From contig JBBRPR010000004.1 in assembly GCA_038227875.1 (NCBI GenBank), positions 128,001 through 192,000 on the forward strand: 64,000 bases of DNA, written 5' to 3'. Source of the DNA: Planctomycetota bacterium (GTDB lineage: Bacteria; Planctomycetota; SZUA-567; H5-PLA8). Within the stretch, counting starts at the first letter, position 1. Each line of letters begins with the position of its first letter. The notes beneath the pieces were generated by a model. It had not been told where the DNA came from. It worked only from the letters and a program-made list of their open reading frames with translations, and did no database searches. Made by a program: the position numbers and the translations under genes. Shown here piece after piece: positions 1,916 to 62,358 of this stretch.

Positions 1916-3979
1916 TTACGCTTCCGCGGTCTCAGGCTCTTCCTCTTCATCAGCGGGCGGCGGGGTGAGCGCGACTTCGACGGCTTTGACCAAGTCCTCG
2001 CTGCTGAATGGTTTCAGCAGCACGGTGGCCGGGCCGGGGCAGCCGTCGATCAGCGTTTCAACGCTCGGGCCGCGCACGAAACCGCTGGCGAATAGCACGG
2101 GAAGGTCCGGGCGTAACACTTGCATGCGCAGGTACGTTTCGAGGCCGCCCATCAGCGGCATGTACGCGTCGAGGATCACGAGATTAATCGTGGCCGGCGA
2201 TTCCTGGAAGCGTTCGAAGGCTTCCTGACCGTTGGAGGCCAGGACGACTTCGTACCCTTGCTGGCGCAGCGACCAGCCCATGAAAGTGCGGAAGTTTTCC
2301 TCGTCGTCGGCGATCAGCACGCGGCGCACGCCGGCTTTCGCGGCGGGCATCTGCATCGGGTCGTTGGGCAGCGGCACGTGTTCGCGCGGACGCGGGCCTT
2401 CGCCGGCGGCGCGGGTGAGTCCCTGAAAGGAACTGTCGCCGCTGGCGCTGGCGACCCCGTTGCTCATGCCTGATCCGCCGTTGGCGCCGGCGTCGAGGGC
2501 GGGAAGATCCAGTTCGATCAGCGTGCCCTTGCCGCTGGTGATGACTTCCAATTGCGCGCGGTGGTAGCGGGCGATGGCGCGGGCCAGCGCGATGCCCGGG
2601 GCTTCGGTGCCGTGGCCGGACATCAGCGGGCGCGAGCCCGGCGCGCTGGGCGTCGCGGAACGCGAGCCGGTGTCTTCGATCGAAAAGGCCGCCTGAATCA
2701 GCGAGGGATGCAGTTGCCGCGGGCGGAAGGTTTTCAGCGTGAGCGTGCCGTTGACCAGGCGTGTCTGCAGGTGTTTGCCCAGCACCAGGATCATCGTGCG
2801 CAGCAGCCGGGCGTCGACGCGCACGCGGGGCAGGTCCAGGCCCAAGTCCACTTTGACGGCAAATCCGTCGGGCACGATATGCCGCAGCAAGTGTCCGGCG
2901 TCGGCGATGGCCGCGTTGAGATCGGTCTCCGGCAGCGCGCCTTCGATGCGGCCCAGCAAATCGGCGGAGCGGCGGAGCAAGCCGACCGCATCCTGTCCGG
3001 CGTCAACGATGGCACCGATATTGGGAGCGGGCAACTGGCCCGGCGGCAGCGCCATGCGCATCGCCGATGCCTGCGCGATAATCACGCTCAGGTAATTGTT
3101 CAGTTCGTGATGAATCGACGACGTCAGCATCGCCAGCACGGTCTGATCTTCAGCGACGTCCTTGCGTTCGGTTTCCAGGCGCGCGCTGGTGAGGTCGACG
3201 GCCTGCACGAGAATGCCGGAGATGTTGTTCTCGTCGCGCAAGGGCTTGAACGAAACGCCCAGCCAGTTCTGGCGGTGGGCGGCGAGCTCCGCCAGGCGCC
3301 CTTCTTCGGCAACGGCGGCCATCGCGCCGGAGATGTTGCTCCCCGCGGCGACGGCAAATTCGGAGTACCACGCCGGCGGCAGGACCACGGTTTCGCCGGC
3401 CCAGGCGCGGTCGAGCGCGCCTTTCATCGTGGGGCTTAAGATCAGATTCTTCACCCAGCTCAGCGGCCGCGACGGCGCGCTGTCGGGCTGCCGCGGGTAG
3501 CGCGTGACGCTGTTGTGCGACGAGACGAAAAACAGCGCGTGCGGCAGTCCTTGCGCGTTTTCCAGAGCGGCGCTGCGGTGGACGTGGAGTTCGCGGAAGA
3601 CGCTCTCGCGGTCGCCACATTCGTGAGCGACAACAAGGTACGCGGAGTCGACTTTACCGACGTGGGTTTCGAGGTCCGCGTCGCTCCAGGGAATCAGCGA
3701 GATGGTCAGGTCGACATTGATGGCGGCATTGTCGTGGCCGAGGAACTGGGCTTCGAGGCGCAGGCAGCCTTCCGGCCGCAGCGCCCGGATCAACGGACTG
3801 AGCCGCTCCAGGCTGGCGGCGGAGAGAAAGTCGGAGGTGTTCTTGCCGACAAGCTGGACGCGCGGGACGCCGAGCATCAGCGCGGCGGCGTCGTTGGCTT
3901 CCAGAATAACGCCCGACGCATCCTCAACGAACAGAGGATCCGCGAAGTGGGAGAAAAGATGCCGGTACCGTTCGGGCAC
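1916..3979 (-). CDS. Hybrid sensor protein: PAS, HisKA, degenerate HATPase, C-terminal receiver domain
   Basis: N-terminal PAS (ILEANDAAALMLG), H-box HHELNNYL, receiver VLIADDE...LVILD...MP...SG...LLKPF. Confidence 0.85.
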   Translation of the reverse strand: MPERYRHLFSHFADPLFVEDASGVILEANDAAALMLGVPRVQLVGKNTSDFLSAASLERLSPLIRALRPEGCLRLEAQFLGHDNAAINVDLTISLIPWSDADLETHVGKVDSAYLVVAHECGDRESVFRELHVHRSAALENAQGLPHALFFVSSHNSVTRYPRQPDSAPSRPLSWVKNLILSPTMKGALDRAWAGETVVLPPAWYSEFAVAAGSNISGAMAAVAEEGRLAELAAHRQNWLGVSFKPLRDENNISGILVQAVDLTSARLETERKDVAEDQTVLAMLTSSIHHELNNYLSVIIAQASAMRMALPPGQLPAPNIGAIVDAGQDAVGLLRRSADLLGRIEGALPETDLNAAIADAGHLLRHIVPDGFAVKVDLGLDLPRVRVDARLLRTMILVLGKHLQTRLVNGTLTLKTFRPRQLHPSLIQAAFSIEDTGSRSATPSAPGSRPLMSGHGTEAPGIALARAIARYHRAQLEVITSGKGTLIELDLPALDAGANGGSGMSNGVASASGDSSFQGLTRAAGEGPRPREHVPLPNDPMQMPAAKAGVRRVLIADDEENFRTFMGWSLRQQGYEVVLASNGQEAFERFQESPATINLVILDAYMPLMGGLETYLRMQVLRPDLPVLFASGFVRGPSVETLIDGCPGPATVLLKPFSSEDLVKAVEVALTPPPADEEEEPETAEA

Positions 3980-4057: not shown

Positions 4058-4087
4058 TAACCAGGTATTAAATTTAATACCAGGTTA
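4058..4087. repeat. ACC-N8-AATT-N8-GGT palindrome, family member
   Basis: TAACCAGGTATTAAATTTAATACCAGGTTA, one mismatched pair; overlaps the stop codon of the 4085-5926 gene. Confidence 0.75.
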
Positions 4088-5926
4088 CTCGTCTCCTCCA
4101 TGACCTCCGTCGTACAACGGCGTTTCCTTGATGTCGCGAGGCACGAGCACCTTGGCATTGATTTGGGTCTGGAGCGTCGAGCCGATGTATTGCGAGTAGG
4201 ACTGAGCGATCTGGCTGCGCTTTTCTTCGCGGTCCCAGGCCGTGTCCTTTTCAAACGTGACCGCGGTGGGCAGCTGCAGTTCCACCGGGAAGCCGACGTA
4301 GAAAATTTTGTGCGGCGGCGGATTCTGATTCTCCGGCGTCGGTGTTTCCAGCGGGCCACTCGCGACGGGGAGCACTTCGCCGATGCCCCGGGGTGAGGAG
4401 AAATACATCTTCGCGATCGGCGACTTGTACTGGCCGGCGATGTCGGATTTGATCTCGAGCATCTCGTCGATCTTCGGCAGTTCCTTGCCCTGATCCCAGT
4501 CGTCGTGCGCCTTCTGTGCGTCCTTGTTGGCCATATCGGCGGCATCGAGAATCTTCAGGCGTTCGATGATCGCCGGCTTGGCGTCTTCCAGCGCTTTGAG
4601 CTTGGCGTCGGTGTAGGCGGTCTTGCGCGCCATCACGAAGCCCTTTTCAGGCTTGCCCGGTTCGATCATGTTGGGCTGAGTCCAACCTTCGAACTGCTTC
4701 TTGAACCAATCCTTGTACTTTTCGTTGTCGCCGCGGCCGCCCATTTCCGGGACGTGCGCCCAGAAGAAAATGTCCTTCACCCACTCGGCGTCGGTGGCTT
4801 TGATTTCCTTCTTGCCCTTCTTATAGACATCCTGGGCCTGTTCGGGAGTGGTCCAGTAGGTCAGGTAGGTCAGGTTCTTTTTGGCGACCCATTCGTCGAC
4901 CTTGAACGGCTTGCGCTGCGCTTCCGGCTGCTTGGCCTGTTCGTCCTTCCACGCGGTTTCGGCCTTCTCGAGATCGTTCTTGATCGTGCCCAGTTCGCTG
5001 GTGGCCTGGTTCTTCTTCTCGTCGCGCCACTTGGTTTCGACATCGGCCTTGACCGTGTCATACGGCTTGAACTTCGGCGGATCGCCCGGCTTGGCCGGCG
5101 GGCCGTCCTGGTAAATGATGGGCTTCTGGCGTTCGTAGAACGCTTTCAGGTCGTCTTCGGTCGGCTTCAATCCAGCGAGGTACTTCTCGGTGTCGAAGCC
5201 GATCAGTTCCGCCGCCATCGTCGGCTGTGTGAAGAGCACGCTCTCCAGATCCTTGAGTTCTTCGGCCTTCACGTCCTTGTTGTTATTGTAGAAGCTCTTG
5301 ATCTTCTCTTCCGTTGGCTGGGGGACTTTGGTCAGGTAATCGGTGCTCTTGAATTCCGAGTAGCGGATGCGCACGACCTGCTTTTCGCGGCAGTAGTCGG
5401 CGAAGAGTTCGCCGTCGCCGACGTGGAAGTCCATCGCAAACTGCTGGAACTTGCCGCGCAGCGCGACTTCGTGGGTCGTCTCTTCGAAATCGATGCCCGT
5501 CATCTGCATCGCGTTGAGCAGCTTGCCGTAGATTTCTTCGTCGGCCTTCGGCGGCGCCTTGCCTTCACGCATCTGGATCTGGTTCTTCACGGCGTTGCGC
5601 AGGATCTGGCGCATCTCTTCGGTGCCCGTTTCGAAACCGGCGTGGCGGGCGAGGCTGACTTCCAGCATGTGTTCGCCGACGTCGCTGGAGTTCACCGGAC
5701 CGCCGCGGCGCAGATACTTGCTGAGCTTCAAGCGGTAATTGTAAGTCTCACTAGGGCTGAGCGAATATTCGGTCTTGCCCATCGAATAACGCACGGTCGG
5801 CCCGGATCCGCCAAAGAGCGTACCGCCTCTTCCGCCAAACCCGAACGCCGCCATACTGACAATCACGACTGGGAGCAACACCCAATACACGAACATCTTG
5901 TGCTGTCGAAACCATTCTAGCTGCAT
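4085..5926 (-). CDS. Membrane-anchored periplasmic chaperone, PpiD/SurA-N-like
   Basis: N-terminus LEWFRQHK plus TM helix typical of PpiD-like proteins; repeated PTEEKIKSFY / PTEDDLKAFY and KPYDTVKADV / KALEDAKPAI motifs. Confidence 0.6.
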   Translation of the reverse strand: MQLEWFRQHKMFVYWVLLPVVIVSMAAFGFGGRGGTLFGGSGPTVRYSMGKTEYSLSPSETYNYRLKLSKYLRRGGPVNSSDVGEHMLEVSLARHAGFETGTEEMRQILRNAVKNQIQMREGKAPPKADEEIYGKLLNAMQMTGIDFEETTHEVALRGKFQQFAMDFHVGDGELFADYCREKQVVRIRYSEFKSTDYLTKVPQPTEEKIKSFYNNNKDVKAEELKDLESVLFTQPTMAAELIGFDTEKYLAGLKPTEDDLKAFYERQKPIIYQDGPPAKPGDPPKFKPYDTVKADVETKWRDEKKNQATSELGTIKNDLEKAETAWKDEQAKQPEAQRKPFKVDEWVAKKNLTYLTYWTTPEQAQDVYKKGKKEIKATDAEWVKDIFFWAHVPEMGGRGDNEKYKDWFKKQFEGWTQPNMIEPGKPEKGFVMARKTAYTDAKLKALEDAKPAIIERLKILDAADMANKDAQKAHDDWDQGKELPKIDEMLEIKSDIAGQYKSPIAKMYFSSPRGIGEVLPVASGPLETPTPENQNPPPHKIFYVGFPVELQLPTAVTFEKDTAWDREEKRSQIAQSYSQYIGSTLQTQINAKVLVPRDIKETPLYDGGHGGDE

Positions 5927-16977: not shown

Positions 16978-17005
16978 ATGGATAGTCCATCAATGGACTA
17001 ACCAT
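16978..17005. promoter_or_regulatory. Tandem candidate operators ATGGATAGTCCAT and ATGGACTAACCAT
   Basis: Two variants of the 13-bp dyad ATGGACNGTCCAT upstream of the beta-helix gene; a perfect copy lies at 18171-18183. Confidence 0.6.
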
Positions 17006-17093
17006 AATACACTGTTTTTGCACGGGTGAAGAGGTTTCTGAACTAAATCTCGTGCACGTGTGCAGTTGAAATTGGGTTGAACGGGCGTGGATT

Positions 17094-18146
17094 TCAGACA
17101 GGGTCTATCGCGGCGATGACTTCGGACGACAGCACTTTGTGAATCGGCGTGGCATTCGGTTTTTCCAGCCGTTGCAAAACCAGATCGGCCGCCGCTTCAG
17201 CCACTTTCCGCCAGGGCGCGACGCAGAACGCGACCAAACCCTTGACCGTATTTTCGCGCGGTTGGTCTGCGAAGCAAATGGTCTCAAAGGTACGCCCACG
17301 TTTCGGCGTCATTCCGCGCGATGCTTCCAATGCGCCAAGCGCTTGTTTTTCGGAAAAACAGAGCAGGGCCGTGGGCGGTGACGACAGTTCGAACAACCGC
17401 TGCGTTACAAGCTTACTGCTGATTGGTTCGGCCCAGCTCAGGCACTGATAGTCCGGATTGACTTCCAGTTTCAGTTTGCGCAGCGCCGCGAGATAACCGT
17501 CGCGGCGGAGTTTCGAATTCGGCCATTCGTCCTGTTCGGTCTTTCTAAAACAGCCGAGATACCCGATGCGCCGGTGCCCTTTTTCATAGAGGAATTCGAC
17601 CGCTTTCTGCGCGCCGGCGACGTTGTCGATCTCCACGCCGTCGACGCCGTCGACGAACGAACCGAAATCGACGGTCACTCTGGGAGAATGCATCGCCGTA
17701 CCGTTGAGCGCCTCCGCACCAACCGGCCCGACCACCACAATCGCGCGCGGTTGCGTCATGTCGTCCTGGATCGAACTGGTGAAGATCAGCCCGATGCCCT
17801 TGGCAGCGAGGCGGGATTCGAGCACCGACAGAACCAACGCGTAGCCGGGAAAAATCGAGAGCGGGTCATTGAGATAAAACAAAAATTTGACCAGCCCGCG
17901 CGACTTCACCTTCTCCGTGACAAAGGTGCCGCCCGGCGGACGCTTTTCGATCAGCCCTTCGGCTTCGAGTTCCGAAAGCGCCTTGGAGATGGTGACGCGG
18001 CTGAGCTTGAATTCCTCCGAGAGCACCCGCTCCGTCGCCAGTTGCGACCCCGCCGGCCAACGGACCTGCTTCAACAGAATATCTTTGATCACCGCCTTGA
18101 ACTGCTTGTAGACAGGATCGCGCACGATCTTTGAGGAGGAATCCAT
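17094..18146 (-). CDS. Transcriptional regulator, GntR winged HTH fused to a LacI-type sugar-binding domain (AraR-like)
   Basis: PVYKQFK...GSQLATERVLSEEFKLSRVTISKALSELEAEGLI...GTFV; IDNVAGA..AVEFLYEKGHRRIGY. Start moved to ATG 18146. Confidence 0.88.
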   Translation of the reverse strand: MDSSSKIVRDPVYKQFKAVIKDILLKQVRWPAGSQLATERVLSEEFKLSRVTISKALSELEAEGLIEKRPPGGTFVTEKVKSRGLVKFLFYLNDPLSIFPGYALVLSVLESRLAAKGIGLIFTSSIQDDMTQPRAIVVVGPVGAEALNGTAMHSPRVTVDFGSFVDGVDGVEIDNVAGAQKAVEFLYEKGHRRIGYLGCFRKTEQDEWPNSKLRRDGYLAALRKLKLEVNPDYQCLSWAEPISSKLVTQRLFELSSPPTALLCFSEKQALGALEASRGMTPKRGRTFETICFADQPRENTVKGLVAFCVAPWRKVAEAAADLVLQRLEKPNATPIHKVLSSEVIAAIDPV

Positions 18147-18154
18147 GAGCGCGA

Positions 18155-18183
18155 AGTATAGCGTGGGTAAATGGACTGTCCAT
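18155..18183 (-). promoter_or_regulatory. Regulator promoter with an overlapping dyad operator
   Basis: Minus-strand TATACT (-10-like, 18155-18160); perfect dyad ATGGACTGTCCAT (18171-18183) over the -35 position. Confidence 0.55.
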
Positions 18184-18196
18184 ATTGGTGTAACAA

Positions 18197-19837
18197 TCAG
18201 CCAATCTGTTTTGGCAGTGCATCGAAGGCATGCTGGAGCGATTTCGCCTGACCGGGATTGACCATGGCGACGTAGGCAATCATGCCTTGGAGCCATGCTT
18301 CGAAGTGCGGCAGCTTTGCACGGTTCTGCGCGGCGAGTCCCTCTTTGCCGGCGCGATGAAGAATCGCGCGGAGTCGGCGGGCGAGTTTGCGCGGAACACC
18401 GGGGCGCCGGTTGACAACGATGCCCGTCACCATTTGCGCGGTGTTGGCGCGTTGAATGCGCGTCTTCTTTTCGTTGACGTCGAAGCCTTCGTGTTCGGCG
18501 ATGTGACGGATGCGTGCCAGGAGATAGCCGCTCTTTGCAGCCGCGTCGTGGCTGGCGGAAAATGTGAGATCATCGGCGTAGCGCGTGTAGGTCCAGCCGA
18601 GCTTTGTGGCGATGCCTTTCAAGCGGCGGTCCATCCGGCGCGACGCCAGATTGCTCAGCGCGGGGCTGGTACAGGCGCCCTGCGGCAGCACGCGCGGGCC
18701 GGTGGCGACGTGGTAGACGGTGCCGGCGTACGTCACGGATTTTCGAGGAGACTCCGTGCACAGCAGCGCGAAAATCGTGGCCACGGCCGGGGAGTATCCA
18801 AGCTTCTTGAAGATTCCGCGCACACGGCGGAACGAAACGGTAGGGAAGAAATCCTTCAGGTCCACGTTCACCACCACATTTTGGCCGACGTGCGGCGTCG
18901 CGTTGGTCAAGGTGTTGTGTCCGGGGGTAAATCCGTGTGCGCATTCGGGAATTTCAATGCGCTTGAGAATCTGATTGTAAATCCACTGCTGGCAGCGGGC
19001 GAGATCGCGGTGCGGTGCCGACAATTCGCGCGTCCCACCGCTCTTCTTGGGCACGGTGAAGGTGACGTAATGCGTGCGCGTTGCCGTCTCGGCATGAAAC
19101 GCCAGCCAGCGCAGCCGCTTGATGGACAACTCCAGTGCCTGCGCCACGTCCGCCGGAGTAGCCAGCAGCGGCAGATGAGCGGCGGTGAGCGCTTCGACGT
19201 TCGCGCGGCGATCGGCCAGGCCCTTCGACACGCCGCGTCCCAGGTAGATGATGTCGGTGGCCTTGCGCTGCGCCACGCCTTCGGCGTGTTTCAGTTTGCG
19301 AGCGGCAGCCTCCGCTTTTTTGCGCGCTCTCAGTTCCGCGCGCTCCTGCTCGTTTTGTTTCACAGCCTGCCGCGCCTGGGCTTCGGCATGGGCCAGGTCC
19401 GGCTTCAGGCGCGCCATTTCGTCGCCGATTTTGTGCGCTTCGAGAAGCTGTTCGGGCGTGATCAGTCCGGCGCCGACCATGCCGCGGTCGATGATCTCCG
19501 TACGCGGATCACTGGCCGGCGGAATGAGATCGCGGCGGCCGAACCACGGACTGGAGAAGCGCGAGGTGAGCGCCTTCGCGCGTTTGTTTAATTCATCGCG
19601 GCTCAGCGGCGCGAATTGAGCGAGGTTGAGATTGAGCGTGACCGGTTTGGGCTGCGGCCGGGGTGGCTGACCCGACGCGGGCGCCGCCGGTGCAGTCCGC
19701 GGGGAATTCTGTGGAGCGGGATTCGCGCGCGTTAAACTCGATGCGGTCTGCGGAGCAGGCGCCGCCGGTCCGGCGGGGCGTTCCGGCGCTTTAGCCGGGC
19801 CGAAAAGAAATTCGCGCAACCAATCCGCCAAACCCAT
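18197..19837 (-). CDS. ret: Retron reverse transcriptase, Mx162-like, with a long N-terminal extension
   Basis: PKKSGGTREL, AHGF, retron region X NATPH, DLKDFFP, LPQGACTSP, YTRYADDLTFS, retron region Y VTGIVVN; adjacent msr-msd structure. Confidence 0.93.
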   Translation of the reverse strand: MGLADWLREFLFGPAKAPERPAGPAAPAPQTASSLTRANPAPQNSPRTAPAAPASGQPPRPQPKPVTLNLNLAQFAPLSRDELNKRAKALTSRFSSPWFGRRDLIPPASDPRTEIIDRGMVGAGLITPEQLLEAHKIGDEMARLKPDLAHAEAQARQAVKQNEQERAELRARKKAEAAARKLKHAEGVAQRKATDIIYLGRGVSKGLADRRANVEALTAAHLPLLATPADVAQALELSIKRLRWLAFHAETATRTHYVTFTVPKKSGGTRELSAPHRDLARCQQWIYNQILKRIEIPECAHGFTPGHNTLTNATPHVGQNVVVNVDLKDFFPTVSFRRVRGIFKKLGYSPAVATIFALLCTESPRKSVTYAGTVYHVATGPRVLPQGACTSPALSNLASRRMDRRLKGIATKLGWTYTRYADDLTFSASHDAAAKSGYLLARIRHIAEHEGFDVNEKKTRIQRANTAQMVTGIVVNRRPGVPRKLARRLRAILHRAGKEGLAAQNRAKLPHFEAWLQGMIAYVAMVNPGQAKSLQHAFDALPKQIG

Positions 19838-19871
19838 GAACCGTTCCTATAAATGGAGCGTGCAAAAAAAC

Positions 19872-20099
19872 CGGGCGGGAGCGGCGGCCTTCTGACTTCT
19901 TCCCTATGACCAAGGTCGTTCACCCAAGAGCCAGCGACCAGTGTCGCCGGGTAAACTCTCGGGTTGTTCATGGTCCCGGCGACACTGGTCGCTGGCTCAC
20001 CACGCACAACGGCCTTGGGGACGCATGTACAGGCCAAATGCAACCACGGCGGAACACCGTAGTAGAACTTGTCTCAGTCGGCACGCGCGCTCCCACCCG
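19872..20099 (-). ncRNA. msr-msd: Retron msr-msd non-coding RNA
   Basis: a1/a2 12-bp helix between 20088-20099 and 19872-19883 (one G-U pair in the minus-strand RNA); msr hairpins 20044-20062 and 20011-20035; perfect 24-bp msd stem 19928-19951 / 19975-19998; directly upstream of the RT. Confidence 0.88.
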
Positions 20100-20116
20100 A
20101 AGCAGCATTGAACTTC

Positions 20117-21817
20117 TTATTCACCTTTAAAGAGATATCCAAAGTCGTACCAACGGTCTGATTTCTCCGCAACTCCACTCTTGCCGCTGCGCCAGACCAA
20201 CGCGCGCAACGCCAGCAAATGACGGCATGGCCCCCTGCGGATGCCACCGCGCTGATGATGGATGCACAGGCATTTTCCCCGGCGGATGCGGCCGTCGGGG
20301 TCGATTAGCAATTCGATGGGCGTGCTTTCGGAATTGCCGATGTAAAGCTTGCCGCCGTTGGGCGCGTCCTGTGTGGACTCCAGTTTGACGCGGCCCCTGG
20401 CGATGATTTGACGCGAGGCGATCAGCTCGGGATTCTCCGGGCCCATCTGATCTTCGCCCAGCGCCATGGGCATGATCTGACGCCAGCGGTAGCGCGCGGC
20501 ATGCAGGTCGTAGATCAATTGCCCGGAGTGCGCGAGTTGATTTAACGCCGCAGCCGTTTCGGCAGGACTGGCCGGCACGGTGGCATTGATTTCCGCGAAC
20601 GTCGACGCCTTGGATTCACGAACGCAACGCGAGACGTCGTAGATCATCTGCCGCGGCACTTCCGCCGTCGGCGCGAGCAGATCCAGCGCGCTGCTGCTGG
20701 TCCAATCGTTGGCCGTCCAGCCGGAGAGGCCCAGTGTCAGGCGCATTTCGCCCATGTTGGCGACCCAGAAATGCGGCATTCCGGTGCCCAGCAGATAGAC
20801 ATCCAGGCTCTCGATCAGTGGCAGCAAGCGGGCGAGCACCAGCAGGCGGCGCGTGCCCCAGACGCGGATGGGTTCTCCGCCGGGTCCGTTGTAAACCACG
20901 CCGTGTGCGACAACCGGTTGCTCCCAGGGCTCCAGCACCAGGCGCGGCGCCTGCCCGGGAATCAGTTCAAAGCGCAGTGCCCGCGGGCTTGACCGTGCCT
21001 TGTGGCGCTTGAGCCAGGCGCAAATGGAATATAACACTTCGCGCGTGAGCGTGACTTTACGCATGGGCAAACCCATCGCGCTTTGAATCTGCATGAAGCC
21101 GCGCAGCCACGAAGGCGGCAGGTCGATTTTCTCTTCGCGGTAATCGGCATTGCCCGCGGTGGCGACGCTGAATCCGGCGGGATCGATGCGGAAGCGCGTT
21201 TCCCTGTAGGAGCGCAGGCCCTGGAAATGATTGTAGAGATCCCAGGAGTAATCGACGTTGGTGGTACCGAACTTTTCGCCCTCGGACTTTCCAAAGGCGT
21301 CGCGCTGCACGGTCAGGCAGCCGTAGCTGGATTCGTCGGCCGAGAAACATTCGAAGAACACCACGTCCGGCGCCACGGTGATCACCGGATCGCAGGGCAT
21401 CAACAGCCGCCACATTTCCTGATCGTTTTTGAGCAGGTAGTTGGAATACTTCAGGCGGGCGTCCCAGTAAAGCCGGCGCTGCCGTTCGAATTGCCGTTCG
21501 AAGTCAGCGGGGACGGGCTGGTCCCGTTGCTTCAGGATGTCCACTTTCGCGCGCTCGTATTCTTCGCGCTGAAGATTTGCCATCCGCTCCTGTTCGCGCT
21601 TTTTCCATTCGTCATACGCGCTCTTGTCGCGCGGCTTGAAGCGCAGGTCGTTGATCACTACGTCGTGAAGCGCGGAGACGGCTTCGCGGAACCGCAGGGG
21701 CTTCAGCAATTGCGCGTCGAAAGCAACAGGATCGCGGGCGAGATTGGGCGAGAGGCTGAGCACCTTGCCCTCGCCGCGCAGCGCGCTGCGTCCGAGGTAG
21801 GCGAATTTGACGTTCAT
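20117..21817 (-). CDS. SWIM zinc-finger protein, retron-associated
   Basis: C-terminal CLC-x12-CRH SWIM motif; also DPVITV, FFECFSADESSYG, GTTNVDYS, WLRGFMQIQ, LGLSGWTANDW; ATGA overlap with the upstream gene. Confidence 0.85.
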   Translation of the reverse strand: MNVKFAYLGRSALRGEGKVLSLSPNLARDPVAFDAQLLKPLRFREAVSALHDVVINDLRFKPRDKSAYDEWKKREQERMANLQREEYERAKVDILKQRDQPVPADFERQFERQRRLYWDARLKYSNYLLKNDQEMWRLLMPCDPVITVAPDVVFFECFSADESSYGCLTVQRDAFGKSEGEKFGTTNVDYSWDLYNHFQGLRSYRETRFRIDPAGFSVATAGNADYREEKIDLPPSWLRGFMQIQSAMGLPMRKVTLTREVLYSICAWLKRHKARSSPRALRFELIPGQAPRLVLEPWEQPVVAHGVVYNGPGGEPIRVWGTRRLLVLARLLPLIESLDVYLLGTGMPHFWVANMGEMRLTLGLSGWTANDWTSSSALDLLAPTAEVPRQMIYDVSRCVRESKASTFAEINATVPASPAETAAALNQLAHSGQLIYDLHAARYRWRQIMPMALGEDQMGPENPELIASRQIIARGRVKLESTQDAPNGGKLYIGNSESTPIELLIDPDGRIRRGKCLCIHHQRGGIRRGPCRHLLALRALVWRSGKSGVAEKSDRWYDFGYLFKGE

Positions 21818-23601
21818 TTCTTCGCCTCCAGGGTTGCAGCTTCGAGTTGCAATTCCGGAACGAAGCGCTGGATGCTGCCGGCAATTTCCGGCCGTGCACC
21901 TGCTGCCGCAACCAACGCCGCCAGCCCCGCACGCGCTTCAGACGGACGCACAGAACGCACCGCCACGGCCAACACCGGAAGCAGGTCGACGGCGCGCTGC
22001 GGATTTTCCAGGATCGCCGCGCCGATCTGGCGCACGGCCTTGCCCTTCTGCCGTCCGCCGCGGTGCACACCCAGGAGCACCGCACACCAGACCGGAATCA
22101 GCACGTCGGCGCTGGTGCCCGGCAATTTCGAGCGGACTTCGAGCAGATCGACGAGTTTCAGGCGCACGTCGTCGTAGGGTGTTTCCACCATGCGCGCCCA
22201 GAGGCCCGCGTCGTCGAAAGCGGCGGCCGAATTCGGTGTTCCGGAGACGATCCACTGCCACGCCGCGCCGCGAATTTCGGGTTGCAGGCTGTCGAAGAAA
22301 CGGGAGATCAAATCGCGCACATAGACGTCGCGCCCGCCGAGAATTCCCAGCGCCCACTGGCCCAGCTCCGCGCCGATGGCGCCGCAGCGTGCGGCGGCAA
22401 CCGCGGCGATGGCTTCGCGGTCTTCCGGCGATTCGATGCGTTTGGCTTTCAGCAGCGTAAATCCCAATCGCGCGACGGGCGCGGCGCGTTCGCAGGTCAT
22501 TTCGATCGCCTGCGCCAGTTCCAGCCGCTCGGGCTGGACGAACTTTACAAAGCAGTCGGCGATGATCTGGAGCGCGCTGAGATTGCGCGTCTTCAACAGC
22601 CGCAGCCAGCCGCTCACGGGAAGTTTTTCGAGCCCCGCCGCCGTTTTCAGCAATTCCGCGCCGAAATGCTGGACCTCTTCGTCCTCGTGATCGAGCAGCT
22701 TCAACAAGTCCTCAGGCGAGGCGCCGTGCAGTGCGTCCTGATGCGTGGCGCGCAGCAGTTGGATACTCCAGACGCGCACCAGCCGCGCCTTTGCGTCGGT
22801 GACGAGATTCAGCAGCAGCGGCGCGCACTCGGTTTTGGACCACAGCTTGGGAAACGCGGGCGCGGCGGTGAGATCCGAAAGCCCGCGGTTCTCTTTCAAT
22901 TTGATCTGCGCGGCGCCGAAGAGCAACGCGTCATGGCGCATGAAACAGGCGTGCAGCAGCGACCATGAATCCAGGACGTTGGGCCCGCTCGCGAGGGACT
23001 CGTCGGTGTAGAGCGCCAGCGCGCGTGCAATCAGCGCCGGGTATTCGTTGGGTCGCTGGAAACCCGCGCGCCGGAAATACCGCCACGCGCGGCGACGGAG
23101 GTAATATCGGGTGCTGTAGGAGAACAGCATAAAGCCGTGGCGATTTCTCACCTTGCCGGGCACCGAGACAATGGCGCCGGTCTTGGGATTGCGCGCGGTT
23201 GTGGGCCGGTAGGCATTGCGGGGTGCATAGAGATGTTCGATCGGCACCGCGCGGCGCTCTTCGCGATTCCAGGCGTGGCGCGTGCGGAGGGACCGGCGGA
23301 CCAGCCCGTCGAATCCGGCGAGGAACACCGCCATCAATTCATCGTCTTTGCGCGCTTCGGCGTGCTTGAACAAGCGTTTGACCAGTGGCTGATGGCCGTT
23401 GCGGTCGAACGGCATCGCCGCGTAAGCCAGCATCTGCTGCCGCGCCCACGGTCGCGGGTCCTTCTTCCAGCGTTCGGCCAGACCGGCGAGTTTTTTGGAA
23501 TCGTTTACGTTCCGCAATTCGTCGACAAAGCGCGAATCTTCGGCGTTGAAATACTCATCCATCAGCAACGATGAGCCGGAATTCGCCGACGGAAGCGCCA
23601 T
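21814..23601 (-). CDS. HEAT/ARM-repeat-like helical protein, retron-associated
   Basis: Leu/Ala-rich helical repeats (LLKLLDHEDEEVQHFGAELL, FFDSLQPEIRGAAWQW, ETPYDDVRLKLV); first gene of the retron operon. An alternative start at MDEYF is possible. Confidence 0.7.
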   Translation of the reverse strand: MALPSANSGSSLLMDEYFNAEDSRFVDELRNVNDSKKLAGLAERWKKDPRPWARQQMLAYAAMPFDRNGHQPLVKRLFKHAEARKDDELMAVFLAGFDGLVRRSLRTRHAWNREERRAVPIEHLYAPRNAYRPTTARNPKTGAIVSVPGKVRNRHGFMLFSYSTRYYLRRRAWRYFRRAGFQRPNEYPALIARALALYTDESLASGPNVLDSWSLLHACFMRHDALLFGAAQIKLKENRGLSDLTAAPAFPKLWSKTECAPLLLNLVTDAKARLVRVWSIQLLRATHQDALHGASPEDLLKLLDHEDEEVQHFGAELLKTAAGLEKLPVSGWLRLLKTRNLSALQIIADCFVKFVQPERLELAQAIEMTCERAAPVARLGFTLLKAKRIESPEDREAIAAVAAARCGAIGAELGQWALGILGGRDVYVRDLISRFFDSLQPEIRGAAWQWIVSGTPNSAAAFDDAGLWARMVETPYDDVRLKLVDLLEVRSKLPGTSADVLIPVWCAVLLGVHRGGRQKGKAVRQIGAAILENPQRAVDLLPVLAVAVRSVRPSEARAGLAALVAAAGARPEIAGSIQRFVPELQLEAATLEAKK

Positions 23602-23754
23602 AAACTTTGCTCGCGAGAATAATTTTTTCGGATACGTGAATCACTCTTACTGGCTGGACCGTGCCTCGTCAATAATGGAATCGCGCCAATCGGCGTTGCG
23701 CTTTCCGCATTCCGGCGATTCGAATTTCTGCGCTGCTGCATTATCATCCCAACC

Positions 23755-56961: not shown

Positions 56962-59196
56962 ATGAAACCAAAATTTGCGCTGGTCCATGGGCATCCTCGT
57001 CTCTGGCTCCGTCCCACGGAGCTTCAAAAGTTCAAGCGCGACAGTCTTCACGCGCGTAAACCGTTCCGACAGAAAATCCTGCGGCGACTCGAGTCGGTGC
57101 TCGCCGATCTCCCAGCTGATGAGTACGTAAAAAGCGCGCCGCAGCACATGGCGCTGGCGCTCGGTCAGGCTTGGCGTCTGACCGGCGATGAGAAATACGC
57201 GCGCGCCGCGTGGCGACTGCTGGAAGAGTTGGAAGTCTACGCGGGTAATTCCGGCGGGTATTCGGCGTGGGGCCTGGCCGCCGAAGCCGCGGCGATCCTC
57301 TACGACTGGCTGCATGATTATTGGAAGAAGATCGGCCGCGAACAGGATGTCGCGCAGGCGGCGTTGATCTTCGGCCGCCGGGCGCTCGAAGATCTCCTGC
57401 GCCGCTACATTCTCGACGACTGGCACAACTACGGACTCGCGCTGCAATCCGGCGTGCTGGCGGTGGCGCTGGCGGTCGGGCACGACCATCCGAAACTCGA
57501 AGACGGCTCGTTGCTGAAAACCATCGAACAGATCCACCTCACCGGGTACGCGTACGAAGGGCTGCGCATCCAGGACATGTTCTACACGCCGCCCACGACG
57601 ATGAATCTGTCGGCGGCGCTGGCGGCGCGCGATTTCGCCGGCTCCGATTGTCTGCACGAAGCCACCGGCTACCACATCATCGACGTGCGCGCGATCGTCA
57701 ACATGGCCGAACTGTGGACGCGCGCGCAGGCCGGAAAATCGCGCGCCGTGGTCTGGCCGGAATTGACACGCGCCGGACACGCCTTGCTGCAGACGTTGCG
57801 GCCCGACGGCAAGACCGTGACCTTCGGCGATTCAACGCCGGGCCGGCTCCATTGGCGCAATGCCGACGTGTTGTCCATGCTGCACGCGCGGACGCCAGAG
57901 CCGGTTTTTGCCGAGCGGCTGCGGGCGTACGACATGGTGAAGAATCATCCGCTGCCGATTTTTCAGCTGCTCTACGCCACGCCTGAAATGATGCCACGCG
58001 GAAAATCCAAACGCCCGGCCGATCCGCTGCCGCCATCGTGGCAGGCGGGCCGCTTGACGCTGATGCGCTCGGGCTGGAAGCCGACGGATACGTTCGTCAG
58101 CTTTTCGTGCGGCGATTTCGGCGGCTGGCACAACCACCATGATTGGAACACGTTCACGCTCTTCCGCGGCGGGGAACTCGCAATCGATCCGCCCGGCGCA
58201 TTCTATACAGGTTCGCACCGCCAGGAATGGCACATGCGGACGGCGGCGCACAACGGCATCCTTGTGCGCGACCCGAAGGAGAAATTCTGGAAAGGCCGCC
58301 ACGGCAAGAACGTGCCCAACGACGGCGGGCAGCGCTTTGTCAGTCTCAGTTATTCCCCGCCCCACACGAGGACCGGCGCGCCCAATCCGGTGCTCACAGA
58401 AGAACGCCGCGCGCGCCTGCACGACGAATTTTCGATGGGCAAAGTCATCGTCTTCGAACCGGGCGATAGCTTCGATTACGTCGCCGGCGACGCGACGCGC
58501 GCGTACACCTACCCGTGGTCGGGAATCGGCGACAACCCATCGCGGCGCGTCGAAGAGGCCGTCCGGCAGATCGTATTCTTGAAGCCCGACTGGATCGTGA
58601 TCTTCGACCGCGTGGAATCGACGCGGCCGGAATTCATCAAGCAGTGGCTGCTGCACACGTATGCGCCCGCGGCGTGGACGGTCCGGCGCGCGCGCAAACG
58701 CGCGGGGCCGGGCATCGTCGCGCTGCCGGAAAACGGGCCGTTCACCTTTGAGCACGAGGCCGGCCGCATGACGCTCTGGCCCCTTCTTCCCGCGGCGCGC
58801 GCGGTCCGCTCGATTGGCGGACCCGGCTACGAATGCTGGATCGATGGCGCCGGTGCCGACGGAAAAGGCAAAAACTTTCCACCCGAGGACGCCGACAAGC
58901 GTCCGACGCATTACCGCTTCGACGTTTCACCAACGCAGCCGGGCACCCGGCACTGCTTCCTCACCGTGCTTCATGCGGGATTGAAGAAGGATGCGCCCGC
59001 GTCGGGAAAGTTTGGCTGCACGGTGATTGCCCACGACGGCTTCTCCGATTGCCGCATCACGCGTGCGAACGGGGACGAACTGGCCAGCGTGAAATTCCGC
59101 GACTCCGGTCCGATCGAAGTGGAAGTGAACATCCCCGGCGAATGCGCGTACCACCGCAACACCGCGCCGGAACGCGTGCCGGTCGCCCCACATTAA
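56962..59196 (+). CDS. Heparinase II/III-like polysaccharide lyase
   Basis: HPRLW, WHNYG, LMRSGW, HNHHDWNTF, RTAAHNGIL, YVAGDATRAY, IFDRV, KQWLLH. Confidence 0.8.
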   Translation: MKPKFALVHGHPRLWLRPTELQKFKRDSLHARKPFRQKILRRLESVLADLPADEYVKSAPQHMALALGQAWRLTGDEKYARAAWRLLEELEVYAGNSGGYSAWGLAAEAAAILYDWLHDYWKKIGREQDVAQAALIFGRRALEDLLRRYILDDWHNYGLALQSGVLAVALAVGHDHPKLEDGSLLKTIEQIHLTGYAYEGLRIQDMFYTPPTTMNLSAALAARDFAGSDCLHEATGYHIIDVRAIVNMAELWTRAQAGKSRAVVWPELTRAGHALLQTLRPDGKTVTFGDSTPGRLHWRNADVLSMLHARTPEPVFAERLRAYDMVKNHPLPIFQLLYATPEMMPRGKSKRPADPLPPSWQAGRLTLMRSGWKPTDTFVSFSCGDFGGWHNHHDWNTFTLFRGGELAIDPPGAFYTGSHRQEWHMRTAAHNGILVRDPKEKFWKGRHGKNVPNDGGQRFVSLSYSPPHTRTGAPNPVLTEERRARLHDEFSMGKVIVFEPGDSFDYVAGDATRAYTYPWSGIGDNPSRRVEEAVRQIVFLKPDWIVIFDRVESTRPEFIKQWLLHTYAPAAWTVRRARKRAGPGIVALPENGPFTFEHEAGRMTLWPLLPAARAVRSIGGPGYECWIDGAGADGKGKNFPPEDADKRPTHYRFDVSPTQPGTRHCFLTVLHAGLKKDAPASGKFGCTVIAHDGFSDCRITRANGDELASVKFRDSGPIEVEVNIPGECAYHRNTAPERVPVAPH

Positions 59197-59966
59197 TCGC
59201 CGGCGTCGGGACGCTTGTTGTCGGGGTTGGGGTTCTTGAGTTCCAGTTCTTCCCACGTCGGCATGCCGTCGCGTTTGAGCTTCACCAGGTCGTCGCGGTG
59301 GTATTCGATCGCGCCTTTCTCGTTCTGGTGTGAACGAATGTCTTTGCGCGCGGTGATGGCCTTCAAGTAATCCATGTTGCGGTCTTTGAGAATTTTCAAT
59401 GCGTCGTCGGCGTTGACCCACATCGGCGGCGGCGCGTTGGGATTCGGCTTCGCGGGATCGTTCTCGTTCGTCGCCGTCTCCACGGGGTCGGGAGTTGCCG
59501 GCGTCGAACGCGATTTGGGCAGATGCGAATAAATGTAAGCGCAGACGGCGAACGCGACGGCCAGTTCCGCGAGCGTCGTCAGAATTCCCGCGATCATCGC
59601 GCCGCGGCTGGCCTTCGAGCCGGGCGCTTCGCTTTCGTAGGCGGCGCGGCAGATCCACGCGCGCGCAATGTTGGCGATGCAGAACAGCGAGAATCCGACC
59701 GCGACGGCCGGGATGCCCCACGGCACGGTCCCCAGTTGTTTGATGCGCCCCCAAATTTTGATCAGGCCGGCGAACATGACGATGATCGCGACGGTCTCGC
59801 CGGTCTTCCAGAAGATGGCGTTTTTGACTTCGCGCGCGATGATCCGGTTGAGCACCGGGCGCTCCAGTTCCAGCACGCCCTTGCCGATCAGCGATTCGCC
59901 GAACGACGTGATCACGTGAGCGACCATGAGGCCGCCGAAGACGATTATTAGTAGGGTCATGCTCAT
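59193..59966 (-). CDS. Membrane protein with a C-terminal excisionase/MerR-like HTH
   Basis: About four TM helices, a Pro-rich linker, then WVNADDALKIL...IRSHQNEKGAIEYHRDDL. Confidence 0.5.
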   Translation of the reverse strand: MSMTLLIIVFGGLMVAHVITSFGESLIGKGVLELERPVLNRIIAREVKNAIFWKTGETVAIIVMFAGLIKIWGRIKQLGTVPWGIPAVAVGFSLFCIANIARAWICRAAYESEAPGSKASRGAMIAGILTTLAELAVAFAVCAYIYSHLPKSRSTPATPDPVETATNENDPAKPNPNAPPPMWVNADDALKILKDRNMDYLKAITARKDIRSHQNEKGAIEYHRDDLVKLKRDGMPTWEELELKNPNPDNKRPDAGD

Positions 59967-60094: not shown

Positions 60095-61171
60095 TCAGCC
60101 GAGATCGATCTTCTGCCGCCAGCCGTACGGGTCAGGCAGCACACCGAATTGAATATCAAGCAACTGCTGGCGCAATTGCATCGTGAACGTGCCGGGCTTG
60201 TCGCCGGCGTTGCGGTACATCACTTCGCCGTTGTGAAGAATTTCGCGGATCGGCGTGATCGCCGCAGCGGTCCCGCAGGCGAAGGCTTCCTTCAACGCGC
60301 CGGATTTGAAGGCCGCGGTCAGTTCATCGGTGGATATCGCGCGTTCTTCGACCTTGCGCCCGGCCGCGCGCGCCAGCTTCAGCAGCGAATCGCGCGTGAC
60401 GCCCGGCAGGATCGTGCCCGACGAAATCGCGGGCGTGACCAGCGTCTCGCCGATCACGAACATGATGTTCATGCCGCCCATCTCTTCGATGTGCTTGTGT
60501 TCCTTGGCGTCGAGCCACACGACCTGGTCGAAGCCTTCCTTGTTGGCCTTGCCCTGCGCCGCCAGCGACGCGGCATAATTTCCGCCGCACTTCGCCGCGC
60601 CGGTTCCGCCGGGGGCCGCGCGGGTGTATTCCGTCTCGGTGCGCAGCCGCACGCCGCGCGGATCGCTGGCGCCAAAATAATCGCCGACCAGGGAGACGAT
60701 GGTGAAGAAAATGTACGTCGACGACGGATTGACCTTGATCACCGCGTCGGTGCCGATCATGCAGGGACGGACGTAGAGCGTCATTGGGCGCGCCGGCAGT
60801 TCGGCCTTGTCGGTCTTGATCAGCCGCGCGATCTCCGCGATGGTCTTGGCGCTGTCGACCTGCGGCATGCACAGCCGCGTGGCCGATGAATTCAAACGCG
60901 CGATGTTGGCGTCGGGGCGGAACATCGCCGCGGAGCCGTCGGGCTGGCGGTAGACTTTGAACCCTTCGAAAATCTCCTGACCGTAGTGAAATACAACGGC
61001 CGACGGCGGCAGCGTGAACGCGCCATACGGAATGATTTCCGACGGCCCCCACGCGCTGTCCTGATAGCGCTGCACCAGCATGTGCGGCGTAAACACTGCT
61101 CCAAAACCAGGGTTGGATTTGTCTGCCATTGCTACGGTCTCCGTTTCGGTGTCCCACGTCTTCCAGTTCAC
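60095..61171 (-). CDS. ilvE: Branched-chain amino acid aminotransferase
   Basis: FHYGQEIFEGFK, LYVRP, AKCGGNY (PLP lysine), EEMGGMN, ILPGVTR, GTAA. Start may instead be ATG 61129. Confidence 0.95.
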   Translation of the reverse strand: MNWKTWDTETETVAMADKSNPGFGAVFTPHMLVQRYQDSAWGPSEIIPYGAFTLPPSAVVFHYGQEIFEGFKVYRQPDGSAAMFRPDANIARLNSSATRLCMPQVDSAKTIAEIARLIKTDKAELPARPMTLYVRPCMIGTDAVIKVNPSSTYIFFTIVSLVGDYFGASDPRGVRLRTETEYTRAAPGGTGAAKCGGNYAASLAAQGKANKEGFDQVVWLDAKEHKHIEEMGGMNIMFVIGETLVTPAISSGTILPGVTRDSLLKLARAAGRKVEERAISTDELTAAFKSGALKEAFACGTAAAITPIREILHNGEVMYRNAGDKPGTFTMQLRQQLLDIQFGVLPDPYGWRQKIDLG

Positions 61172-61263
61172 AATTTACCACACGCTTTCCCATGCAGCAC
61201 GGACTTTCTGAGCCGCCGTGGGGCGAACGCATTTTCTGCGCGGAAAATCCGCGCGCAGCGTTC

Positions 61264-62358
61264 TCACCACTGATGTTTCGGATTCTGCCGGTGCATCTTG
61301 TTGATCTTGCGCCAGCGCTCCTTTTCGGCGCGCGCGGCACTGGCGTCGACGCGGCGGTTCTGCCAGGCCAGTTCGCGTTTCTGCTTGATGTAGCTCTCGT
61401 AACGCCCGGCATCCAGAGTGCCGGCATCGAGCGCCGCCTTAATCGCGCAACCGGGTTCGGTTCTGTGGAGGCAATCGCCGAAGCGGCACGCGCTGATCAG
61501 CCGTTCGATTTCCTCAAACGTCTGCACGACCGATTCGCCGCCTGTACTTGCGGTGGCCGCGAGCCCCAGTTCGCGCATCCCGGGCGTGTCGATGATCATC
61601 GCTCCGCCGGGAAGCTGGACGAGCTGGCGATGCGTAGTGGTGTGTTTGCCGGTGTCGTCGTCGCCGATCGCGCGCGTAACCAGCAGTTGTTCTCCGGCCA
61701 GGCGGTTGACGAGCGTGGATTTGCCGACGCCCGAGGACCCGAGCAGTACGCACGTTTTTCCCGGGACGAGGTAGGGACTCAGCGCGTCCAGACCCATGTT
61801 GGCCTGCGCGCTGAGCGTCAGAATTTTCACCGCGTGAGCGATCGCGGCGACATCCGCCATCGCCGCGGCCGCTTGACTGGCGTCGGCGCAGAGATCGGCC
61901 TTGGTGAGCAGCACGACCGGCTCCGCGCCGCTCTCCCAGGCCATCGTCAGGTAGCGCTCGATGCGCCGCGGATTGAAATCGCGGTTGAGCGAACTGACGA
62001 TGAACGCCGTGTCGACATTCGCCGCGACGATCTGATCGCGGGCGGTGTTGCCGACTTCCTTGCGCCGGAATGCAGTCATGCGTTTCAGACAGCGCTGAAT
62101 CGTGGCGCGGCGTTCATCGAGTCGTGCGGAGATGCCGACCCAGTCGCCGACCGCCGGAGGTTCAGCGCCGAGTTCCACTTCATGGCGCATGCGCCCGGAA
62201 AGTTCGGCGAACAATTCGCCGCTCTCTCCGAGGACGCGGTAGCTGTTGCGGTGGCCTTCACTGACCCGCGCGAAGGAAAGCGTGCGGTGTTCTTCGGGTT
62301 CGACTTGATTGGCAAAAAAATCGATCCAGCCCAGCGCGTTCAATGTTTCGGAATGCAA
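61264..62358 (-). CDS. rsgA: Ribosome small subunit-dependent GTPase A
   Basis: AVGDWV, VAANVD, TKAD, GSSGVGKST, GKHTTT, DTPG, CRFGDCLH..EPGC. Start uncertain. Confidence 0.95.
   Translation of the reverse strand: MHSETLNALGWIDFFANQVEPEEHRTLSFARVSEGHRNSYRVLGESGELFAELSGRMRHEVELGAEPPAVGDWVGISARLDERRATIQRCLKRMTAFRRKEVGNTARDQIVAANVDTAFIVSSLNRDFNPRRIERYLTMAWESGAEPVVLLTKADLCADASQAAAAMADVAAIAHAVKILTLSAQANMGLDALSPYLVPGKTCVLLGSSGVGKSTLVNRLAGEQLLVTRAIGDDDTGKHTTTHRQLVQLPGGAMIIDTPGMRELGLAATASTGGESVVQTFEEIERLISACRFGDCLHRTEPGCAIKAALDAGTLDAGRYESYIKQKRELAWQNRRVDASAARAEKERWRKINKMHRQNPKHQW

Follow-up and report, generated by a model that had tools for sequence, protein, structure and literature searches.

The window studied here, a stretch of 64,000 nucleotides (nt) from the Planctomycetota bacterium contig JBBRPR010000004.1 (positions 128,001 to 192,000; assembly GCA_038227875.1), carries on its minus strand an intact type XIII retron, with three whole open reading frames (ORFs), all their motifs and a structured non-coding RNA (ncRNA). 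The locus is a further member of a known and common retron class and not a new system. Its 'SWIM' protein is predicted from a structural model to consist of a DNA sliding-clamp fold, followed by a winged helix and then a SWIM zinc finger. The co-oriented elements follow one another along the operon in the order HEAT, SWIM, ncRNA and reverse transcriptase (RT):

21814..23601, minus strand: HEAT/ARM alpha-solenoid protein of 595 amino acids (aa), WGR-less form (PADLOC model HEAT-ARM_XIII, conservation, AlphaFold2 model)
20117..21817, minus strand: 'SWIM' protein, 566 aa (PADLOC model SWIM_XIII, AlphaFold2 model, fold matches, conservation)
19867..20104, minus strand: msr-msd ncRNA of about 238 nt, with a1/a2 stem, msr hairpin (about 20044-20062), and msd outer stem plus long hairpin
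18197..19837, minus strand: retron RT of type XIII/clade 10, 546 aa (PADLOC model RT_XIII, motifs, closest solved sequences)

An earlier sequence-only reading had described four tightly packed, co-oriented elements, and its layout was recovered in full from the ORFs and the sequence: the HEAT and SWIM genes overlap by ATGA (plus-strand letters tcat at 21814-21817), and a gap of 279 bp (19838-20116) separates the SWIM gene from the RT gene. That reading had also named type XIII for the locus and proposed a PADLOC run, in which the best models of all three proteins were indeed those of type XIII. Specifically, the RT matched RT_XIII with an E-value of 2.2e-158 and 526 bits (next model 9.2e-102 and 340 bits), the SWIM protein matched SWIM_XIII (E 1.7e-184) and the HEAT protein matched HEAT-ARM_XIII (PDLC02922; E 1.2e-192, aa 5-589). 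Type XIII includes the myxobacterial retrons in which multicopy single-stranded DNA (msDNA) was discovered in 1984, the first retron being Mx162. According to Mestre et al. 2020 (PMC7736814), the type is defined by a clade-10 RT, a cluster-114 gene with DEDE, winged helix-turn-helix (wHTH) and SWIM elements, a preceding HEAT gene and an msr-msd ncRNA, and the RT co-evolves more strongly with HEAT than with SWIM. Type XIII accounted for 143 of 1,286 candidates in a 2026 survey (PMC13712802). The locus shares with the Mx162/Mx65/Ne144/Sa163 group a clade-10-type RT with a long N-terminus, the cluster-114 gene, the preceding HEAT gene and the msr-msd ncRNA; it differs from described type XIII retrons in its WGR-less, 595-aa HEAT protein, an amphipathic helix at the RT N-terminus and a core modelled as a sliding clamp.

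The evidence for this clamp comes mainly from the AlphaFold2 model of the SWIM protein (mean predicted local distance difference test 86.8, predicted template modelling score 0.83), in which an N-terminal beta-hairpin precedes a two-domain clamp with a helical insertion (aa ~60-139), a winged helix, a beta-sheet with the SWIM finger and an aromatic C-terminal tail. The predicted parts map to the window as follows:

20696..21724, minus strand: sliding-clamp (PCNA/beta-clamp) fold, aa 32-374 (Foldseek, VIA, conservation, HHalign)
20474..20662, minus strand: winged-helix domain, aa 386-448 (VIA Z 10-10.7 to wHTH/Z-alpha domains and Z 9.8 to the DprA wHTH)
20219..20272, minus strand: SWIM zinc finger, CxCx12CxH (ligands conserved in the alignment)

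When the model was searched with Foldseek, the PDB matches listed were all PCNA or 9-1-1 clamps, the best being human PCNA (E 3.5e-7, probability 1.00). With VIA-align, run against 48,161 chains, the 27 highest-ranking rows were clamps (Z up to 15.5, there with a root-mean-square deviation of 2.8 over 213 residues) and were followed by winged helices on aa 386-448. Overall, the clamp matches had Z 10-15.5 and deviations of 2.8-4.5 over ~190-230 residues at 4-13% identity, and the viral structural matches were likewise PCNA and beta-clamp proteins. We take the order of strands and helices, mapped partly on the general PCNA topology, to be that of the two PCNA domains, the first helix being followed by a helical insertion of 80 residues. 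The strongest residue couplings joined neighbouring strands of the modelled clamp (F158-Y165, V255-F283, L338-A353 and F350-G363).

At the sequence level the fold is far less visible. The insertion-free region gave a weak HHalign match to five DnaN sequences (P 0.00055, probability 30%), while clamp domain 2 against DnaN, and domain 1 against domain 2, gave none. No clamp family hidden Markov model (HMM) of Pfam or NCBIfam matched the protein, PDB sequence searches returned nothing past weak wHTH matches (the winged helix also gave weak profile matches by sequence), and the ESM Atlas held only SWIM or hypothetical clusters for it. Neither Pfam nor NCBIfam placed an enzyme family in the SWIM or HEAT protein; the statement of the sequence-only reading that no toxic enzyme could be recognised thus stands at the level of family HMMs, but the SWIM protein has a recognisable predicted fold, that of a two-domain sliding clamp. 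The Foldseek comparison it had suggested led to clamps for the SWIM protein and to generic solenoids only, with no effector fold, for the HEAT protein.

Conservation picks out several groups of residues in the SWIM protein. Six acidic residues are conserved in the clamp region (D143, E156, D161, E162, D189 and E228; 97-100% for D143, E156 and D161), as are four basic residues (R44, R202, R279 and R324; 84-96%) that lie within the four clamp helices or directly behind them. The SWIM motif reads C516-x-C518-x12-C531-x-H533, with ligands 96-99% conserved (alignment A1), and the aromatic tail occurs in 117 of 119 close SWIM homologs. In the model, helix aa 235-247 stands in place of the interdomain loop, where it may fill the peptide pocket. 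As to the oligomeric state, the coupling analysis (311 sequences, effective number 222) was underpowered for ring versus self-capping: the ring-interface coupling had z 2.0 in a set whose within-subunit control reached only z 3.4, and coupling of the N-terminal pair 9-232 (z 4.2), together with beta-clamp alignments at model residues 7-10 and 508-510, gives a mere hint of capping. A complex prediction with two SWIM copies (aa 1-500) scored 0.00 and is uninformative on ring or dimer. Like PCNA, 9-1-1, beta clamp, UL44 and T4 gp45, the modelled protein has two clamp domains and basic residues on helices; unlike them it adds the helical insertion, the N-terminal hairpin, the wHTH and the SWIM finger, and its operon contains no clamp-loader gene, the replicative dnaN of the genome being encoded elsewhere.

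We also found this core outside retrons. In loci L035-L043, RT-less clamp-SWIM genes lie upstream of 880-1100-aa proteins with DUF6493, DUF7824 or DUF7825; such a large helical partner adjoined the SWIM gene in 6/6 cases tested. The RT-less proteins share the predicted clamp-wHTH-SWIM core, with D143, E156, D189, E228 and the zinc ligands invariant in 10/10 aligned, but they lack RT, ncRNA and the helical insertion, carry Cys-Cys at positions 161-162 in six of seven cases, and have their partner downstream of SWIM, with no match to the type XIII HEAT models.

The gap between the SWIM and RT genes, where the sequence-only reading had placed the ncRNA, is strongly structured: it folds better than shuffled sequences (z -7.46, 0/200 as good) and contains an inverted repeat of 24 bp without mismatches (19928-19951/19975-19998), an outer repeat of 11 bp (19910-19920/20008-20018) and a terminal a1/a2 pair (20088-20099/19872-19883). 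In an RNAalifold analysis of 18 loci, 42 of 53 consensus pairs showed compensatory change, and five covariation measures all exceeded 500/500 shuffles and all slid controls, in a test that is partly circular, since this alignment had also supplied the structure. This alignment comprised 18 regions; L003 was excluded as a near-duplicate, and L002, L004, L005, L019, L021, L023, L031 and L032 because the full RNA had not been located beforehand. Searching 40 sources with the resulting model recovered held-out copies in L002, L003, L004, L005 and, twice, L019, with weak matches in L034 and L031 and no copy in L021, L023 or nine RT-less loci. Rfam had no match at the locus. Two further features are predicted within the RNA:

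20073, minus strand: candidate branching G, just 3' of a1, in a near-invariant column
19910..20018, plus strand: predicted msDNA duplex region, with 11-bp stem, internal loop, perfect 24-bp hairpin and 23-nt loop

As in other retrons, the RT presumably primes at the branching G and copies the msd into a DNA with the 24-bp GC-rich hairpin; going by its probable ends, we estimate this reverse-transcribed DNA (RT-DNA) at roughly 130-140 nt, and the predicted DNA fold has z -7.0. G20073 is the likely branch point: three loci show the classic TAGC context at its column (contexts as in PMC6868368).

Variants of the arrangement were seen among relatives. The ncRNA occurs twice in tandem between HEAT and SWIM at L019:7384-7937; the RNA of both L005 and L019 is situated upstream of SWIM, and their RTs have an extra N-terminal domain. 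In L002 a perfect 28-bp hairpin (3778-3850) between the matched ncRNA (3521-3755) and the RT is possibly a second, different ncRNA.

The RT carries the motifs reported by the sequence-only reading, namely YADD (aa 420-423), NAxxH (here NATPH) and VTG (here VTGIVVN), and the solved sequences closest to it are retron RTs. Eco1/Ec86, Eco2, Eco7, Eco8 and Eco11, which share the layout of RT, msDNA and effector, are among the nearest; their effectors are known enzymes with demonstrated defence, whereas the type XIII locus is known here from sequence and predicted structure. The extended N-terminus of the RT consists of an amphipathic helix, a Pro-rich linker and a charged helix:

19799..19837, minus strand: aromatic amphipathic helix at the RT N-terminus, putative membrane tether

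Among the N-termini of 25 RTs, 15 had an aromatic amphipathic helix, usually with a Pro-rich linker, four had hydrophobic segments, two an extra domain and four none of these (starts were chosen and classes judged by eye, with no control). A putative membrane tether is the simplest reading of the RT helix together with the aromatic tail of the SWIM protein. The model of the HEAT protein is confident (pLDDT 91) and mostly helical; across 120 homologs we found an invariant basic, arginine-rich helix (~aa 164-177), which suggests nucleic-acid binding, and a conserved basic, glycine-rich motif (aa 513-519).

To what extent the three genes travel together was assessed with a SWIM alignment built from 129 of about 270 homologs. 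It matched 25 of 401 genomes of the phylum, with the long form in 20 genomes (22 places, two of them in the query genome). From the 20 outside places fetched, 16 had an RT and 14 both RT and HEAT within the fetched stretch, and three of the four RT-less places were short contigs. Starting from the RT, of 22 places matching RT_XIII at E 1e-135 or better, 19 had a SWIM gene on their own contig no more than 13 kb away, two had it on other contigs and one was without; the RT thus keeps the company that the sequence-only reading had expected of it. All three genes were present in five of six named genomes, the sixth ending at a contig edge. The system was carried by 3 of 41 near relatives, query genome included, and flanking genes vary even within the family. 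Such patchy spread (3/41, 20/401, differing flanks) is typical of defence.

Individual relatives depart from this pattern. L017 and L018 have replaced the CxH ligands of the SWIM finger, and their RT starts with a hydrophobic segment; L031 and L032 are SWIM-RT loci with no HEAT gene detected and a transmembrane-like RT N-terminus, the SWIM insertion being short or absent in L031; at L047:8190-12228 a type XIII-like RT is accompanied by HEAT, while neither that stretch nor a search of the genome revealed a SWIM gene. In one family, of which 39/40 genomes match, most of the matches come from another retron-like RT (E-values to RT_XIII between 1e-93 and 1e-113), which is apparently kept vertically there.

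Our best explanation, to which we assign a little under an even chance, is that msDNA, RT and HEAT protein restrain a clamp-like DNA-binding effector whose release brings about abortive anti-phage arrest; every step past msDNA synthesis is one we infer. RT, msDNA and the HEAT solenoid would form one complex, probably at the inner membrane through the amphipathic helix of the RT and the aromatic tail of the SWIM protein. The clamp-fold protein would bind duplex DNA or DNA ends by its basic helical face and winged helix, with no clamp loader, as an open arc like the herpesvirus processivity factors and not as a loaded ring, and the msDNA hairpin would be its decoy ligand. Unwinding, cutting or coating of the msDNA by DNA-processing proteins of the phage would free the clamp protein onto chromosomal or phage DNA, where it would arrest the cell either through a metal site of acidic residues in clamp domain 1 (i.e., a clamp turned nuclease) or by non-catalytic fork blocking. 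We lean slightly towards the metal site; the change of D161-E162 to Cys-Cys in the RT-less homologs would be a swap between metal ligands and was counted in favour of the proposed mechanism. We favour an msDNA-restrained effector because characterised retrons work in this way and clade 10 RTs make abundant RT-DNA: according to PMC12746101 and PMC13276650, toxins of other retrons are neutralised by RT and msDNA and triggered by phage helicases, single-stranded-DNA-binding proteins, nucleases or methylases, and PMC10849725 counts the RTs of clade 10 among the best producers of RT-DNA. More tentatively, type XIII retrons in general, Mx162 included, may have recruited a sliding clamp as their effector in immunity or at DNA breaks: an ancestral pair of clamp-SWIM and helical-repeat proteins, at first without an RT, would have come under msDNA control, gained the insertion and the acidic metal site, and become a membrane-tethered sensor-nuclease of DNA ends or forks, PARP-wired in some lineages.

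Several observations weigh against restraint of an anti-phage clamp effector. A shared fold by itself shows no function, the clustering in space of the conserved acidic residues is inferred from topology and not from model coordinates, and simple patterns found no PCNA-interacting peptide or other clamp-binding motif in RT or HEAT. Not every part is obligatory, as two related loci have lost SWIM-finger ligands, HEAT is undetected in two and SWIM in one. Type XIII flanks showed no sign of defence islands: among 140 ORFs flanking 24 related loci, PADLOC matched seven, a count that has no background control (three generic kinases, a dGTPase, a Fic and two matches that were partial), and a scan of viral contigs yielded a single 56-aa fragment. 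The literature searched, in which subscription journals were mostly not covered, contained no defence or toxicity experiment on type XIII; nor did we find there any function or mechanism for the type, any paper describing the clamp fold or a retron-clamp link, or any paper on DUF6493. With these flanks and this literature, the defence or sensing role that the sequence-only reading had put forward is a conjecture. A term search of the available text of bioRxiv 2020.06.21.156273, PMC12548924 and PMC8632793 returned no passages on type XIII or SWIM. Finally, Mestre et al. (PMC7736814) describe type XIII as vertically inherited and suggest non-defence roles.

Such roles are the substance of a somewhat unlikely alternative, in which the locus is a domesticated sensor of DNA damage or stress: clamp-wHTH-SWIM and HEAT (often WGR-HEAT) proteins would recognise breaks or ends, with msDNA tuning the response and, in some lineages, WGR-PARP, macro-domain and ADP-ribosylhydrolase (ARH) proteins taking part. 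Vertical inheritance in myxobacteria, housekeeping flanks and the existence of RT-less clamp-SWIM/DUF6493 pairs agree with it. So does the distribution of ADP-ribosylation genes, which adjoin 5 of 26 RT-linked loci; PARP is rare (4/401 genomes), and of the four cases two lie within type XIII loci and a third is in a genome whose type XIII genes are on different contigs. However, the five loci represent only two RT clades (in a tree of type XIII-like RTs only, from which L006 was dropped as frameshifted and which speaks to relations within type XIII), one PARP genome is the query genome itself, and WGR, PARP, macro and ARH genes are all absent from the window locus. The patchiness among close relatives also counts against a domesticated sensor, and linkage to PARP would suit defence equally well.

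The clamp could instead act as bait, mimicking the host beta clamp to catch phage clamp binders or inhibitors, while HEAT, or the tethered complex by disturbing the membrane, would provide the output. We regard this as unlikely: the predicted clamp fold, a complex of a phage protein with beta clamp among the solved structures (7evp), the membrane-type termini and the closer co-evolution of RT with HEAT than with SWIM fit it, but helix aa 235-247 may occupy the very pocket that would be needed, conservation sits in acidic and basic residues with no obvious pocket, and HEAT has no effector fold. That the locus is a silent or neutral relic, making msDNA or nothing and bringing no benefit, we consider improbable; the locus has no demonstrated expression and relatives are partly broken (e.g., frameshifts in L006, no SWIM in L047), yet its three intact ORFs with all motifs, its perfect 24-bp hairpin and the strong covariation speak against a relic. 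Least credible, indeed very improbable, is that the SWIM protein is a nuclease derived from a DDE (IS256/Mutator-like) transposase, following the DEDE motif proposed for it by Mestre et al. 2020 (PMC7736814). The motif itself is real, as D143, D151, E156, D189 and E228 are present and conserved (with a last spacing of 38, not 37), yet it is placed by the model on a confidently predicted clamp domain and not on a transposase-type core, and all listed Foldseek rows and the top 27 of VIA were clamps, with no transposase among the matches listed, which falls short of an exclusion.

The locus is flanked by genes for a GntR-LacI regulator and an ABC permease, PADLOC matched 0/9 window ORFs given to it, and, consistent with the remark of the sequence-only reading that no mobile-element genes flank the system, 0/38 other window ORFs (a subset of all) fell into mobile-element families of Pfam. 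The module has a GC content of 0.60-0.65, like the window. The longest form of the regulator ORF (17094-18296) overlaps the RT end, its likely start being 18146, behind a promoter-like site; a scan for promoters and terminators gave results at chance level. Contigs of a possible source run match 17000-20000 and 19972-23606 with zero differences, which is not an independent check, and in one RNA run two 151-nt contigs were identical to 19994-20138 and 20391-20541, which is not proof of transcription. At the thresholds applied, neither Pfam nor PADLOC assigned a family to three long window ORFs (4085-5926, 59193-59966 and 60324-61427).

The query genome holds a second, divergent type XIII retron (L007:6007-15202, G000:C83), with RT, ncRNA, a SWIM protein ~35% identical and an 846-aa HEAT protein; immediately before it, in the same orientation, come genes for macro, WGR-PARP and ADP-ribosylglycohydrolase proteins, this being the only PARP found in that genome. 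WGR-PARP, macro or ARH genes also adjoin the type XIII loci at L046:658-12620 (with two PARPs), L019:11716-13323, L005:4554-14842 and L028; in L005 an HTH_28 ORF, maybe an insertion sequence, lies between separated WGR and PARP parts.

As one of many, the locus adds mainly a compact, intact and WGR-less version of its type. The predicted clamp fold would replace the published 'transposase-like' guess on the SWIM protein, and the model names features that can be tested, namely the acidic site, the basic DNA face, the zinc finger, the membrane helix and, as ligand, the msDNA hairpin. If the effector does derive from a clamp, a fold central to replication would have been put to a new use.

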